Positions 3,006-11,141 are shown, counted from the stretch's first letter. The stretch: 64,000 nt of DNA from Candidatus Poribacteria bacterium (GCA_965218095.1 OZ244587.1:5632001-5696000); one strand, 5' to 3'. Notes: generated from the sequence alone by a model not told the origin. Made by a program: numbers and translations.

Positions 3006-3647
3006 TTAGAAATTCCGACTCCCATTGGGTTGATGGACGTACTCAAAGGTTACAAAACCGCCCTCCTTTTTGCTCTTATTGTCCTTATAGTAGCCGATGA
3101 AACGCACCTTTGCAAACGTGCCATCCGCCGTTTGAACTACGAACACACGTTTCTCCAGAGGCAAGATCCAGTGATTGGGCGGTCCGGTGTAAATGTACCA
3201 CCCCTCCTCGCTCTGTGCGACGATAGCGAGGTTCTCGTCTGAACCAGCGACGTACCCGCCCGCGGGTGCCTCTTTCACCTGCTCAAACTCTACATCTTCG
3301 AGCATCACCGCACTTCCCTTTCCCGCGCCGCTCACGCCGCCGTTGAGTTTCACCTTCGTCTGTTGAAAGCCGAGGTCCCAATCCATTGAATTTCGTGGGT
3401 CGGCGACCTCGAGGGCATCGCCTTTGGCGAAGGAGAAATACGCCCACGCCTCTTTGCTCGTTGCGTCAATGGTGAAGTTGACAACATCGAGTTGTGGTGA
3501 GACTTCGGCGGGCGACTGTTCCTCAAGCGGTTGCTCGAGTTCATCGTCGTCATCATCATTACTACAACCGAAAAAGAAAACGGTACTAATAAACAAAACT
3601 GACCAGATAATGAGTCGCCAAGTGGCGAGATTTCTGAGGGTTTTCAT
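3006..3647 (-). CDS. hmuY: HmuY-family heme-binding lipoprotein
   Basis: Lipobox FFGC; WAYFSF, WDLGF..KLNGGVSGAG, GWYIY and TADGTFAKVRF motifs. Confidence 0.85.
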   Translation of the reverse strand: MKTLRNLATWRLIIWSVLFISTVFFFGCSNDDDDDELEQPLEEQSPAEVSPQLDVVNFTIDATSKEAWAYFSFAKGDALEVADPRNSMDWDLGFQQTKVKLNGGVSGAGKGSAVMLEDVEFEQVKEAPAGGYVAGSDENLAIVAQSEEGWYIYTGPPNHWILPLEKRVFVVQTADGTFAKVRFIGYYKDNKSKKEGGFVTFEYVHQPNGSRNF

Positions 3648-4662: not shown

Positions 4663-6609
4663 TCAGTAGTTCAAAGAGAGTCCGCCATAAAATGACCGCC
4701 CGGTGAAAGTATAAAAGGCTGGAATTTTGAAGTCGAAAATGTTGTTGATGCCGACGGAGGCTTTGAGCCATTTGAGAACCTGCTTTGACCCCCGAAGATT
4801 CCAGATATAGTTGCTCGGCGCGTACTCCTCATCTTCAAGTACATTGTCGCTGTCGTCGAAGAATCCCCACCTGCTGGCGTAACGCCCGCGCAGGTCTAGG
4901 TTGAAACCGGCGTCTCGGTTTGTGTAGGCAAGCTTGAGGTTGCCGCTGTGCTTGGATCGATTGAGCAGCGTCAAACCTGTCTCCTTATCCTCGCCCTTGA
5001 GATACGCATAGCCGACCATCGCGGAGAAGCCCCCGATTGAACGGGTCGAAAATTCGACTTCAACCCCTTCGGTAAACGCTTTGCTGACGTTGAAATACTG
5101 AAATTTACTCCCGCCAAGCACGCTTTTCCCAATCCGCTCCGCTTCGATCAGGTTTTTCAGGTTGTTCCGATACAAGTGCACCCGTCCTAGCAGCGCGGAC
5201 TTAAACTGGTATTCAACCCCAAGATTCCAACTCCCCGACGACTCCGGTTGCAGGTCTGGATTTCCAAGCACTTGATAGCCAGATGTCGGATTGCTGAAAT
5301 CGAGATAGAGGTCTTTGAAGTCGGGTGCACGAAAGCCTTGACCGAAGGAGGTGCGAATCGTGACATCACTGGTCACGTGATACATCCCGCTCAACTTTGG
5401 ACTGAAGTGCGTTCCAAATTCGGAGTGATGGTCAAGCCGTCCCCCCAAGACAAGCGCAAGGTTTGCCATCGGTCGAAATTCGTTCTGGAAAAACAGCGAA
5501 TCCGTCGTAACGCCCTTCTCACCGCCTGCAATGCGTTGGGATTCGAGGTTTTCAAAAATTAACTCTGCGCCAACGGTCAGTTGGTTCTTCAATCCGAGGG
5601 CGGTGTCAAATTGCGCTTCGCCTTTGATCAGGTCTTGAACCGTGACGTTTGATGACGCGGTGAGCGAGGTGCCACGGTCAATAACCGTCGATTCATCGCG
5701 GTAGCGTGTGGCGTAGATTTTGCCCATCAACTTTGAGCGCAAACCGAGTTGATACCCCGTGCCGACGCTTCCGCTGAAGTTGTCAATATTGCCGAGGCGG
5801 TCGAAGATGATGTCGTCTGTTTCACTGACACCCTCCTGCTCTTGGGCAAAATACTGCCCCGAAAACAGCAGCATCGCTTTGGAGGTAAGTTGATACTCGG
5901 TCCGCGCAGAGTGGGTCAAGTTCTGATAGCCATCAATCGTCGTCGAAAGGTCTGACTCGTCTAGATCGATTGGGTTTCGGCGATTTGCGGCAAGGGTCAA
6001 TAGCGCGTTGAACTTGTCGCGTTTCAACTCAACCGCGCTGCGACTGTCAATGGTGTTGTGGGTCTCGAAGTTGTTGGTGAATTGCACAGCAAATGGGGAC
6101 GACACTTTGCGTGTGATAACGTTGATGACGCCCCCCATCGCAGCACTGCCAAAGAGTGCCGACGATGCGCCTTTGACAATCTCGATCCGCTCAACGTTTT
6201 CGACTGCAATCCGTGCGAGGTCGAGTTTGCCAGCGATTCGACCGACCTGCGGTTCGCCATCAAGTAGGACCAGGATGTAATCGGAAGCGAGCCCTTGCAG
6301 TTGAACACCGTCGCCGTGGGCGTCGCGATGGACGACAACCCCCACCCGATGCTCAAGCACCTCGCCGATGTTTTCCGCGCCTGTCGCTTCAATCTCACTT
6401 CGCGTAATGACTTCGGTGATGACCGGCGTGTCTTTTAACCGACGCTCGGTTTTTGTGCCGGTGATGACCACCTCGTCCATCTGAAAAAAGTCAGCGATTG
6501 ACGCGGTTTGGGCGAAAGTGCAGACGGGTTTGAAGCCTGTCTCTACAGTCATTCCACCGATGGTGAAGATAACGAAAAAACCGATCCAGATTCGGTTGTG
6601 TAAACTCAT
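4663..6609 (-). CDS. TonB-dependent receptor, probably heme (HmuR/CirA-like)
   Basis: TonB box EVVITGT; plug ERIEIVKGASSALFGSAAMGGVINVITR; FRAP and NPDL motifs; aromatic C-terminus. Confidence 0.92.
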   Translation of the reverse strand: MSLHNRIWIGFFVIFTIGGMTVETGFKPVCTFAQTASIADFFQMDEVVITGTKTERRLKDTPVITEVITRSEIEATGAENIGEVLEHRVGVVVHRDAHGDGVQLQGLASDYILVLLDGEPQVGRIAGKLDLARIAVENVERIEIVKGASSALFGSAAMGGVINVITRKVSSPFAVQFTNNFETHNTIDSRSAVELKRDKFNALLTLAANRRNPIDLDESDLSTTIDGYQNLTHSARTEYQLTSKAMLLFSGQYFAQEQEGVSETDDIIFDRLGNIDNFSGSVGTGYQLGLRSKLMGKIYATRYRDESTVIDRGTSLTASSNVTVQDLIKGEAQFDTALGLKNQLTVGAELIFENLESQRIAGGEKGVTTDSLFFQNEFRPMANLALVLGGRLDHHSEFGTHFSPKLSGMYHVTSDVTIRTSFGQGFRAPDFKDLYLDFSNPTSGYQVLGNPDLQPESSGSWNLGVEYQFKSALLGRVHLYRNNLKNLIEAERIGKSVLGGSKFQYFNVSKAFTEGVEVEFSTRSIGGFSAMVGYAYLKGEDKETGLTLLNRSKHSGNLKLAYTNRDAGFNLDLRGRYASRWGFFDDSDNVLEDEEYAPSNYIWNLRGSKQVLKWLKASVGINNIFDFKIPAFYTFTGRSFYGGLSLNY

Positions 6610-6672
6610 TAATTGTCTCCTTTCTGTGTAATTTTCTTGACAATCGCAAAGCGATTGGCTTATCTTAATAGG

Positions 6673-6790
6673 AACAGAAAGGGCGATGGGCGCAAAAAAG
6701 CCCCATTACATCAAACCGATAGAGATATGGGATATAGCTAACAATTGGCCGTTGGGAGCTGTCCCTTTTCTATCGTTTGCCTTTTCTGTT
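6673..6790. ncRNA. candidate structured leader or sRNA upstream of TonB receptor
   Basis: Closing helix 6673-6684/6779-6790 enclosing a short and a long hairpin; one arm is complementary to the RBS region. Confidence 0.45.
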
Positions 6791-6808
6791 ATTTTATTTC
6801 CTATTGAT

Positions 6809-6829
6809 TGATAATGAGTCTCAATATCA
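6809..6829. promoter_or_regulatory. Fur-like box
   Basis: TGATAATGAGTCTCAATATCA; 15/19 match to GATAATGATAATCATTATC; next to minus-strand -10 (TATTAT at 6833-6838). Confidence 0.8.
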
Positions 6830-6992
6830 GATATAATACAACTTTATTGAGCGATAACTAATGAGATAATGTTTCTCCAAACATTCATCTCGTCCTCAAT
6901 TCGTGTTCGATTCGACGTATGACCGGAGCACGGTGTTAATTTGTGCTCCACATACAAATACTTATGTGCGTCAATCATAAAGCTTAAATTTA

Positions 6993-7108
6993 ACGTAGGT
7001 TCGTAGTAGGGCGATTTATCACCCGTCAGGTTCGTCGTCAAGTGCTTTATCGCCTGTCCAAACGCGCAATGAATTGCGCTACTACTAACTTTTATATCGA
7101 ACTCACGT
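6993..7108. mobile_element. MITE/REPIN-like element
   Basis: Ends ACGTAGGTTCG / CGAACTCACGT, flanked both sides by TAAATTTA; internal GTAG-type REP palindromes. Confidence 0.6.
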
Positions 7109-7113
7109 TAAAT

Positions 7114-7470
7114 TTAGTGTACCCTGAATTGACCACCGCGCGGTTCCGCCTCAAGGTCAGGGCGAGCGGAATCGAGAAATACCTCGTGAAGTTCTAGCTT
7201 GTTCGACTGCGTGAACGCCTCTTTGGGCAGGGTTCCCGATTGGGCGTGCCCCTTACGGAATTCATCCGATTCGACCCAGTTTTCAAAGTCCTTCCGCAAT
7301 TCCCAAAGCGTAAACACGACGTAGGGGTCGCCGTCATTGACCGGACGCAACACTTGGTTTGAGATGAAGCCGGGCATCCCGTCAACGAGTTGAGCGCGGT
7401 TGCGGAAACGCGCCTCGAAGGCTTCGGTGTACTCGGGTGCAACGTAGATTCGATTTGCAACAGTTATCAT
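7114..7470 (-). CDS. IsdG-like heme-degrading monooxygenase (ABM family)
   Basis: N-terminal Asn (VANRI), MPGF, W..S..F..GH; Asn/Trp/His pattern of IsdG/IsdI. Confidence 0.8.
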   Translation of the reverse strand: MITVANRIYVAPEYTEAFEARFRNRAQLVDGMPGFISNQVLRPVNDGDPYVVFTLWELRKDFENWVESDEFRKGHAQSGTLPKEAFTQSNKLELHEVFLDSARPDLEAEPRGGQFRVH

Positions 7471-7886
7471 GGTCTTGACCTCCGTTCTGTCTTTGTATGA
7501 TAAACTCGAATGGGGTTATGTTGAGTTGGCTGACTAGGTGAATTGACATCAACAAAAATATGTTCCCCGTCAACCTTCACGGGATAGGTTGCAATCCCAC
7601 ATTTTCCGGGCCAGATGCACTTGCCTGTTTTGACATCAAACTTCCATTGATGAATTGGGCAAACGATAACGTCATTTTCTAACTGACCCGCGTGTAAAAT
7701 TCCACCAACATGGGGACAGATGTTGTTCACCGCGTAATACTTCCCATTGACGTTGTGGATACCGATGAAATTACCTTCCAACTTCGCGCTAATGCAGCTA
7801 CCGGGACTCACCTCATCTGTCTTGGCTGCTTTTATGAATCGAGGGACTCCCGGATTTCGTTGTGTCTCTTGGATTTGTAAAGCCAT
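7467..7886 (-). CDS. Rieske [2Fe-2S] ferredoxin
   Basis: CPHVGG...CPIHQWKFD motifs; ATGA overlap with the IsdG-like gene. Confidence 0.9.
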   Translation of the reverse strand: MALQIQETQRNPGVPRFIKAAKTDEVSPGSCISAKLEGNFIGIHNVNGKYYAVNNICPHVGGILHAGQLENDVIVCPIHQWKFDVKTGKCIWPGKCGIATYPVKVDGEHIFVDVNSPSQPTQHNPIRVYHTKTERRSRP

Positions 7887-9681: not shown

Positions 9682-11082
9682 TCACAAAGATTCAAGAAAA
9701 GCGATGAGCGCGTCTCTGTCGCTTGCGGACATCTGCTGAACTGCCTCACGCGATTGTTCTGCTTCCCCGCCGTGCCATAGAATCGCCTCCAGTAACCCTC
9801 TTGCCCGACCGTCGTGGAGGAAGTTGGTGTGTCCGTTGACCACTTTGACCAGCCCGATACCCCACAGCGGCGGCGTGCGCCACTCCGAACCGCTCGCCAG
9901 AAAATCAGGGCGATTATCTGCCAACCCCGGACCCATGTCGTGCAGCAGCAGATCGGTGTACGGGTGAATCGTCTGGTTGGAAACCTCCGGCACATCCGAT
10001 AATGTCCCCGTCCGCAACGTCGGAATATGGCAACCGGAACATTGTGCACTCTCAAAAAGTTGCTCGCCACGTTGAATAAGCGGGTCGTCGAGATCACGTC
10101 GGGCAGGCACAGCAAGGGTTTGGACATAAAATGTTACCACATCCAAAATTTCATCGCTGAGTTCTGGGTCGTCACCCCGTCCGTCATATTGCGGTTGCCC
10201 AGCCGAATTTTCATTCGGTAGCAGCAAGGTTGTAATACCCATGTCGTCGTGGTAGGCGGAAGCGACCTGTTGAATCAGTGTTGGCTGATTCGCCTTCCAC
10301 CCGAATCGACCGAGATTCTGCCCATTCTCTTGGACATCCCAAACGAAATTCGCTTTCCCTGAGATCCCATCGCCATCCTGATCATCTTCGTCCGCTAAAG
10401 CGAGGATGGTTGATTCAGGTATTGCTTCGAGTAGTCCTAAGCCGAACACAACGGGCGCGACACGGGGCGAAAGTTCAACGTTGTCCGGTAACGGTTGATA
10501 CGCGTCTTCGATTTTGTAGTTCGGCGTCCGGAGATACACCTTCACCCCGTCGCTGGTCGTGAGTTCACCCTCGGTATAATTAATTGTTACCGTTCCTTCC
10601 GGGGGTACACCGAAGATCGCTCGGTTATTGAGTTGTGTGCCGAAACCGGGAACAGGCACGGGTCCGTGTGTGCCGTCTCCCTCTGGGTTCGGAAGACTCA
10701 CACGGAAAAGCATTGATGTGAGTTTTTCGCCCGATGTCGGCGCGCGGCCCCGCCCATCTCGCGCATGACAGTTGATGCACGAGATATTATTGTAAACCGG
10801 ACCGAGTCCCGGGTTGACTTCCGCCGGGACCGTGACAAAAACGGCTTCAAACTCAACATCACCCTCTAGGTGCTTTGCTAACCCGTCTGCCGAAAGATTT
10901 GGCGCGGGCGTCGAAAACGCGTGGCTCGTCGCGTCGAAAACCGTCGTCTCCCCGCCTGAAAGCCCTTTATCCGAAACGCTCATCTTCTCCGGATCGGTCA
11001 GATTGTCGGAACCGCAAGCGATGATCAGCATGCAGAGCAATACTATGGGGAACAGAATATATGAAAGATGGTTTGATTTCAT
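9682..11082 (-). CDS. di-heme oxidoreductase family (DHOR/DUF1111) lipoprotein
   Basis: Two CxxCH (CINCH, CSGCH), GRFGWKA, WRTPPLWG, LHDGRAR; partner of imelysin; start could extend to 11094. Confidence 0.9.
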   Translation of the reverse strand: MKSNHLSYILFPIVLLCMLIIACGSDNLTDPEKMSVSDKGLSGGETTVFDATSHAFSTPAPNLSADGLAKHLEGDVEFEAVFVTVPAEVNPGLGPVYNNISCINCHARDGRGRAPTSGEKLTSMLFRVSLPNPEGDGTHGPVPVPGFGTQLNNRAIFGVPPEGTVTINYTEGELTTSDGVKVYLRTPNYKIEDAYQPLPDNVELSPRVAPVVFGLGLLEAIPESTILALADEDDQDGDGISGKANFVWDVQENGQNLGRFGWKANQPTLIQQVASAYHDDMGITTLLLPNENSAGQPQYDGRGDDPELSDEILDVVTFYVQTLAVPARRDLDDPLIQRGEQLFESAQCSGCHIPTLRTGTLSDVPEVSNQTIHPYTDLLLHDMGPGLADNRPDFLASGSEWRTPPLWGIGLVKVVNGHTNFLHDGRARGLLEAILWHGGEAEQSREAVQQMSASDRDALIAFLESL

Positions 11083-11141
11083 GATTTCAAACACAACGGG
11101 TATAACGCATAAAATAACCGGTATTTCAGAAGCGCAGCGTA

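Follow-up and report, generated by a model that had tools for sequence, protein, structure and literature searches.

A predicted structured small RNA encoded backwards in iron and heme uptake operons of Candidatus Poribacteria

The DNA just upstream of a TonB-dependent receptor gene in Candidatus Poribacteria bacterium very probably holds a gene for a structured small RNA (sRNA) that is read from the strand opposite to the receptor. The DNA analysed, called the window here, is a stretch of 64,000 nucleotides (GCA_965218095.1 OZ244587.1:5632001-5696000, positions counted from its first letter), and the predicted RNA lies on its + strand at 6673-6801. A preliminary description of the window, made from the sequence alone, had taken this segment for a riboswitch-like leader of the receptor messenger RNA (mRNA), in which a segment B would pair either with an upstream segment A or with a segment C at the ribosome-binding site (RBS), and had offered as an alternative an antisense sRNA of about 120 nt transcribed from a TTGACA-18-TATCTT promoter. 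It is this alternative that is well supported, by the strand signal of the G·U pairs, by covariation and by conservation of the promoter. We favour, at about even confidence, the reading that an independently transcribed structured sRNA specific to Poribacteria is set backwards in iron/heme uptake operons and acts in cis on the operon mRNA.

A covarying fold on the strand opposite to the receptor mRNA

The + strand of 6673-6801 folds at -51.8 kcal/mol (z -6.9), a value that 0 of 200 shuffles attained, versus -38.7 kcal/mol (z -3.5) for the opposite strand, and the interval 6600-6810 gave -67.1 kcal/mol (z -5.2) on the + strand versus -52.0 kcal/mol (z -2.7) on the mRNA strand. The outer helix of this fold, P1, corresponds to the A:B pairing of the preliminary description, which is present as a 12-nt inverted repeat of 92% complementarity, and judged from the relatives the domain that it closes is more than a chance pairing, being both conserved and covarying. 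A consensus computed by RNAalifold on a MAFFT alignment of 52 sequences comprised 28 shared pairs, distributed over P1, a remnant of P2 and a three-part P3, with 96.7% of 1428 cells paired and 10 pairs changed on both sides. The covariation score in this alignment was 0.224 versus 0.144 in shuffles, none of 500 of which equalled it, and it fell to at most 0.10 when the pairing partners were slid. Among 69 distinct copies aligned to a covariance model, a procedure that is biased towards structure, 96.1% of the cells were paired, double changes occurred in 14 of the 28 pairs and the score was 0.281 versus 0.137. P1 is paired at 97.6-98.1% in the relatives, with three positions that alternate between G·U, A-U and G-C; the three consensus pairs of P2 are paired at 83%, and each of them has changed on both sides; helices 3-5, in P3, are paired at 94.8-99.4% and show compensatory G-C/A-U and A-U/C-G swaps. 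Covariation across orthologous copies had been proposed in the preliminary description as the check on its structure, and the copies are both conserved and covarying.

The strand on which this fold is maintained can be read from its wobble pairs. G·U cells numbered 157 on the + reading versus 19 on the opposite reading, many of them inherited and so not independent, and recurrent G·U pairs were found in at least nine different columns. As the G·U pairs of the + strand turn into A·C mismatches on the mRNA strand, 1381 of the 1428 cells are paired on the + reading versus 1243 on the opposite one. The minimum free energy of single sequences was better on the + strand in 47 of 50 copies, by a mean margin of 8.8 kcal/mol, a few of the cores having been cut inexactly. 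It had been remarked at the outset that several mismatches become G-U pairs on the + strand, and this holds across the family. Compensatory changes together with G·U pairs argue for selection at the RNA level, and the G·U evidence would place the functional fold on the strand complementary to the receptor mRNA.

The RNA would measure about 125 nt in the window's lineage and 145-205 nt in others, with about 120 to 205 nt as the overall range, because the short hairpin is swapped for longer branched hairpins in other lineages. Its 5' end was placed from the promoter geometry and its 3' end from the U-rich run past P1, a run that follows the P1 3' arm in the main types, so that both ends are predictions. 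The apical region of P3 is near-invariant, and the U·G pair that closes it is replaced in just one of 69 distinct copies (UG:68, UA:1). In locus L122 (4001-4202, genome G135) the invariant apical segment is duplicated internally, with the core motif twice in tandem. A small protein gene was considered and rejected. The 41-codon frame that is open across the RNA in this genome and in L010 has no conserved start and is shifted or interrupted in many of the 52 aligned copies, and within it the invariant core is without synonymous (third-position) variation. The features of the locus are listed in Table 1.

Table 1. The predicted RNA, its putative signals and the adjoining genes in the window
Feature	Position	Strand	Basis or remark
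Structured sRNA (predicted)	6673-6801	+	P1-P2-P3 three-way junction and U-rich tail; fold, covariance model, covariation
P1 5' arm	6673-6684	+	complement of segment B
P2, short hairpin	6685-6707	+	other lineages have longer branched hairpins in its place or as extensions
P3, long hairpin	6717-6775	+	fold prediction
P3 apical region, GCUAACAAUUGGCCGUUGGGAGC, near-invariant	6737-6759	+	columns invariant in the 52-sequence alignment
P1 3' arm	6779-6790	+	complement of segment A; U-rich tail next, at 6791-6801
-35 box, TTGACA	6637-6642	+	conserved (see text)
-10 box, TATCTT	6661-6666	+	TAnnnT type conserved (see text)
Receptor RBS region (segment C, ACAGAAAGGAG)	6617-6627	-	pairing with B unconserved
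TonB-dependent receptor gene, 648 aa	4663-6609	-	Pfam Plug and TonB_dep_Rec_b-barrel; downstream on the mRNA strand
HmuY-family gene	3006-3647	-	Pfam HmuY, 3.1e-24; downstream of the receptor
Fur-box-like 9-1-9 palindrome, GATAATGAGTCTCAATATC	6810-6828		9 nt past the sRNA 3' end
ABM-domain protein gene, 118 aa	7114-7470	-	Pfam ABM; upstream cistron on the mRNA strand

Promoter, gene order and distribution

The TTGACA-18-TATCTT site of the preliminary description is present on the + strand at 6637-6666. Taken alone, the promoter scan of the window is not significant (2 sites versus 1.4 +/- 1.0 expected), and the site owes its weight to conservation among the copies. An exact TTGACA stands at this place in 60 of the 70 distinct copies, from four families; the -10 box is of a conserved TAnnnT type (TATCCT in 17, TATTCT in 17 and TATCTT in 13 of the 70); the spacer between the boxes is 16-19 nt long (18 nt in 43/70), and the -10 box ends 6-8 nt upstream of the model's first position, where the first helix begins, in 65 of the 70. 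The same geometry was found in all four families and in a paralogous locus designated type 3. The RNA has, by consensus match only, a promoter of its own on the strand opposite to the presumed target transcript, as is expected of a cis-encoded antisense sRNA. A 7-3-7 palindrome, CAATCGC-AAA-GCGATTG, lies inside the promoter spacer at 6641-6657 and is partly retained in class 1, f3, g15 and g17 copies and not in class 2; a regulator of the sRNA could use it as its operator, or it could form a hairpin in the mRNA just upstream of the RBS.

The connection with iron and heme uptake made in the preliminary description is supported by the gene context. The receptor scored under every curated cut-off of NCBIfam, its best scores including the heme/hemoglobin, CirA and BtuB families, and the ABM-domain protein is a putative heme-degrading monooxygenase of the HmuQ/IsdG kind, with sub-threshold matches to the HmuQ and heme oxygenase models of NCBIfam; a homologue of it adjoins the RNA 3' end in most other lineages. 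The receptor ATG occupies 6609-6607, its start being 27 nt beyond the sRNA -35 box, and the gap of about 200 nt between this ATG and a Fur box, as first described, was recovered together with the palindrome itself. This palindrome is presumed to be the operator of a - strand mRNA promoter, and one Fur-family gene is present in the genome. A second promoter-like site on the + strand, TTGATA-18-TATAAT (11/12, 6808-6837), overlaps the Fur-like box and is directed into the antisense of the ABM side; its -10 part was unconserved in three relatives compared by eye.

On the mRNA strand, the usual gene order among the copies is (flavin amine-oxidase-like), ABM, the RNA set backwards, (PepSY_TM), TonB-dependent receptor and one or two HmuY genes. 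Type 3 loci run TonB receptor, RNA, PSCyt1 proteins; in L133 the RNA is flanked on either side by a TonB receptor, and in L132 the order is CarboxypepD_reg-type TonB receptor, RNA, ABC ATPase, Fur and ABM. The nearest long open reading frames (ORFs) on both flanks, taken as 4 kb, are opposite to the RNA strand in 19 of 20 loci, and a Pfam search with 54 flanking proteins returned ABM, PepSY_TM, TonB receptors, HmuY, Fur, ferritin and ABC ATPase. Among the 13 loci scanned with Pfam, 10 have a TonB receptor at a distance of at most 3.3 kb; of the remaining three, L100 is cut off too early, L130 contains HmuY, ferritin and ABM, and L134 is the weakest match. Start codons were assigned heuristically, and 56 of 70 copies have one on the opposite strand, at the head of a long ORF, at a distance of 40-79 nt (median 62) from the RNA 5' end; the next cistron starts only about 10-30 nt past the RNA's -35 box.

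Of 25 loci, 16 have a Fur-like box no more than 630 nt past the 3' end of the RNA, at +1 to +10 after the RNA in the window's class and at +365 to +630, upstream of the ABM gene, in others. A scan allowing up to five mismatches found no such box at the RNA's own promoter in any of the 25 loci, the sites being 3' of the RNA or kilobases off, and none at all in seven type 3 loci and in L133. In 151 genomes, the RNA and HmuY occurred together in 65, the RNA only in 12, HmuY only in 5 and neither in 69, and within genus g14 the figures were 26 with both, 3 discordant and 28 with neither; kinship inflates these counts. From this co-occurrence, the RNA therefore travels with the uptake cassette.

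The covariance model recovers the window's element on the + strand at 139.8 bits and gives full-length matches in 77 of 151 sampled Poribacteria genomes, with 20/25 in family f1, 8/10 in f3, 47/100 in f2, 1/4 in f4 and 0/11 in f5-f9. By nucleotide comparison, 18 of 40 relatives, extending to a second family, carry the element at 78-89% identity for full-length first copies and 73-79% for second copies in the same locus. Searched for in its mRNA-strand form among about 185,000 species genomes, a 22-nt core pattern matched 48 stretches exactly, all of them in metagenome-assembled genomes of Candidatus or uncultured Poribacteria. No Rfam family was matched at E<=10 on either strand of 6000-7500, the cobalamin riboswitch included, in line with the preliminary description, which had seen no cobalamin consensus, and none at E<=1 in nine further loci of other element types. 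Taken together these searches point to an RNA family specific to Candidatus Poribacteria. In its own 6.35-Mb genome the element is a single copy, the second-best match having E 0.87. A dispersed repeat of the REP or MITE kind, which the preliminary description had considered as an outcome contrary to its reading, was ruled out, as relatives have only one or two model matches per genome and all of these are in TonB-receptor loci where examined.

The g4 genomes G011, G024, G023 and G018 (L028, L029, L030, L031) have a second copy 5-10 kb from the first within the same iron-uptake region; each copy precedes a PepSY/receptor pair, and several of the second copies have degenerate -35 boxes and retain the fold. 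The type 3 paralogue (L123-L129, e.g. G015:C1:3266571-3266719) is about 148 nt long with a tetraloop-sized apical loop and is flanked by a 770-aa TonB receptor on one side and PSCyt1/FlgD_ig/Por_Secre_tail proteins on the other; it does not occur in the window's own genome. A weaker second model match of 27.9 bits lies 2 kb off in L132 (G030, family f4).

Possible modes of action

In the mechanism that we propose, the sRNA would be transcribed from its own sigma-70-type promoter (TTGACA-N18-TATCTT), and the operon mRNA would start on the Fur-box side and cross the RNA gene on its way to the receptor-side cistrons. We infer this read-through because the Fur-like boxes lie past the RNA 3' end and there is no room for a promoter between the -35 box and the next start codon. 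The two facing promoters would be 130-200 bp apart, or 0.5-0.8 kb apart with ABM between them. Polymerase traffic from the strong sRNA promoter would then interfere with the operon mRNA by convergent transcription, and/or the sRNA would form a duplex with the complementary leader or spacer of the mRNA, followed by processing, and the outcome would be a gate or threshold for the receptor-side cistrons relative to the upstream cistrons.

Contigs from two metatranscriptome runs give a hint that the region is transcribed, one contig of 362 nt (depth 12.6) covering 6674-6794 and others covering 6694-6769 and 6747-6794. The uncovered parts of 6300-7200 in the RNA runs X1 and X2 (e.g. 6517-6671 and 6796-6888) carry no weight, the contigs being derived from mixed relatives. 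A joint of 6794 to 7111 was also found in DNA run X3, and because of this we take it for a genomic variant and not for RNA processing.

Several points weigh against a cis-acting, independently transcribed sRNA. The contigs come from a single study, show neither strand nor true ends and may include DNA carry-over, and the 362-nt contig links the element to the ABM gene, which fits an mRNA as well as read-through of the sRNA. A consensus scan of 6300-7300 found no - strand promoter, and there may be a weak divergent promoter for the receptor mRNA that consists of a -10 box only. The promoter rules of Poribacteria are not established by experiment, and the fold is kept beside degenerate promoters in second copies of some g4 genomes (L028, L029, L031, L068) and in L070. 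Type 3 paralogues have neither the U-rich tail nor a nearby Fur-like box. The relatives are kin, and counts across genomes overstate their independence. Finally, the invariant apical loop goes beyond what a purely cis-antisense role explains, because a cis target co-varies automatically, and it suggests an added trans partner, either protein or RNA.

This last point leads to the alternative that survives best, which we nevertheless consider rather unlikely, namely that the sRNA acts in trans on distant mRNAs, or binds a protein or a ligand such as heme through its apical stem-loop, its antisense position only coupling dosage and inheritance. Such a role would account for a 23-nt apical region that is near-invariant over four families while its flanking stems covary, for P1 arms whose sequences are also nearly invariant, for a type 3 paralogue residing in a different TonB-receptor/PSCyt1 locus, and for a structure conserved well past the needs of perfect cis complementarity. 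On the other hand, the tight spacing from promoter to start codon in 56 of 70 copies indicates a local role, the RNA is found almost exclusively alongside the cassette, and the genome, which is 93.9% complete, gave no match to Hfq (PF17209), an absence that is itself unproven. A phylum-specific version, in which a Fur-independent riboregulator would bind a trans partner (protein, heme or iron) with its apical stem-loop and junction and so link the heme/iron state to several TonB-dependent uptake loci, is in our judgement distinctly unlikely.

An element for mRNA processing or stability would be of another kind, an RNase site or an insulator between cistrons that works on the mRNA or on both strands, with the promoter boxes weak or incidental. 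It would suit the constant position between cistrons of a single transcription direction, the copies that keep the fold despite degenerate promoters and the contig from an RNA library that joins the element and the ABM gene. The G·U asymmetry, however, favours the other strand, and 60 of 70 copies, drawn from several families, share an exact TTGACA at fixed geometry, which is hardly incidental; we regard this explanation as quite improbable.

The riboswitch-like - strand leader put forward in the preliminary description, in which B would pair with A or with the RBS and so sense heme or iron, is very improbable on the present comparison. In this genome both pairings are indeed available, A:B over 11 of 12 positions and B:C as a perfect 9-nt inverted repeat (6619-6627/6674-6682) that only 4% of mononucleotide shuffles attain; the mirror structure on the - strand still has z -3.5, and the receptor mRNA very probably includes the element's sequence. 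However, B:C reaches at least 9 bp in only 8 of 69 distinct copies and elsewhere does no better than shuffles, being there a generic match of a pyrimidine-rich arm to any Shine-Dalgarno sequence, and of 21 copies from relatives, 10 have a PepSY_TM gene in between, behind which the receptor start and its RBS are 0.3-1.15 kb further on. An anti-Shine-Dalgarno/anti-anti-Shine-Dalgarno switch is therefore not borne out by these copies, and the leader as a whole conflicts with the conserved promoter, which points the other way, with the G·U pairs of the conserved fold, which lie on the strand opposite to the mRNA, and with the lack of any Rfam riboswitch match. A DNA-level element (binding array or recombination site), a small protein gene, a retron RNA or a dispersed repeat is scarcely credible, for the palindromes CAATTG and GGCC, the 41-codon frame of this genome and a superficial msr-msd-like topology are outweighed by compensatory changes and G·U pairs that denote selection on RNA, by a frame without conserved start, by the single copy and by the absence of a reverse transcriptase nearby.

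The likeness to a retron msr-msd, also raised in the preliminary description, consists in an outer inverted repeat around one short and one long hairpin. The element has no same-strand ORF after it, the 54 flanking proteins that were scanned include no reverse transcriptase, and no same-strand reverse transcriptase gene was seen in any locus examined; the RVT_1 matches of this genome are at 0.6 and 1.1 Mb, more than 4.5 Mb from the element at 5.64 Mb.

Relation to known systems and neighbouring features

If the favoured cis-acting reading is right, the closest precedents are antisense RNAs of iron-uptake and iron-stress genes, and the RNA described here forms a new family within an established general class, the cis-encoded antisense or small regulatory RNA of an iron-uptake operon. 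RNA-alpha of the Vibrio anguillarum plasmid pJM1 is a cis antisense RNA to fatA/fatB that is reported to lower their expression in iron-rich conditions (PMC5524678), and it resembles the Poribacteria RNA in lying inside an iron-uptake operon under Fur control with an outer-membrane receptor among its genes. The Poribacteria RNA differs in its intercistronic or leader position, RNA-alpha being opposite a coding sequence, in being far more structured and conserved in sequence, and in that its effect is only predicted; the two share no sequence or Rfam relation. In the same V. anguillarum operon, RNA-beta has a terminating role. IsrR of Synechocystis is a discrete 177-nt antisense RNA that controls accumulation of the iron-stress mRNA isiA (PMC2758717). 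It is opposite the coding region of a photosynthesis gene and belongs to a different phylum. IsrR shows threshold behaviour, and the threshold-type logic proposed here is modelled on it.

Trans-acting sRNAs regulated by Fur, of the RyhB, PrrF and IsaR1 types, are also sRNAs of iron homeostasis, some of them encoded beside heme/iron uptake genes. Their own promoters carry a Fur box and most of them depend on Hfq, whereas the Poribacteria RNA has no Fur-like box at its promoter (0/25 loci), no Hfq was found in its genome and it has no Rfam match. Riboswitch leaders of TonB receptors, such as the cobalamin leader before btuB, are comparable as conserved structures directly upstream of a receptor gene, but the Poribacteria RNA is encoded on the opposite strand behind a promoter of its own and shows neither a conserved expression platform nor an Rfam family. 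Our literature search returned no paper on a poribacterial regulatory RNA and no described family for this RNA, nor any paper on a "Poribacteria-1" RNA motif, which would be a structured RNA candidate of this phylum and which, if in Rfam 15, does not match the element. The main text of PMC5737381 has no mention of Poribacteria, TonB, heme or sponge.

Poribacteria are uncultivated sponge symbionts for which the acquisition of heme and iron plausibly matters for life in the host, and with conservation, covariation, a strand signal and a promoter behind it, this would be a structured sRNA family that is well supported in the phylum. With a strong consensus promoter that faces backwards at only 10-30 nt from a start codon, in an operon with Fur-like boxes, it would be a compact natural case of control by convergent transcription or antisense RNA. 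The invariant loop offers a concrete handle for a partner search, and the covariance model is directly usable to annotate sponge metagenomes and metatranscriptomes. Were the trans-partner reading true, the RNA would be a sensor acting in trans that is carried by the uptake cassette of an uncultivated sponge symbiont.

Some further features of the neighbourhood may be added. The direct adjacency of the element to the receptor in the window, initially ascribed to a private deletion of the PepSY gene, is shared by g5 and f3 genomes, in which the element is likewise immediately before the receptor, and that explanation was withdrawn. Between the RNA and the ABM gene, a dispersed repeat of about 60 nt at 7029-7090 (within 6975-7110) has 37 other matches in the same genome with 73-100% identity over 25-62 nt, and it shows very high depth and many joints in all four sequencing runs. 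A 65-codon ORF at 6844-7041 is doubtful as a gene because this repeat overlaps it. On the far side, a Rieske [2Fe-2S] protein gene (7467-7886) overlaps the start of the ABM gene and a di-haem oxidoreductase (DHOR) gene (9682-11094) lies further upstream on the same strand, which suggests a larger heme/iron redox cluster.

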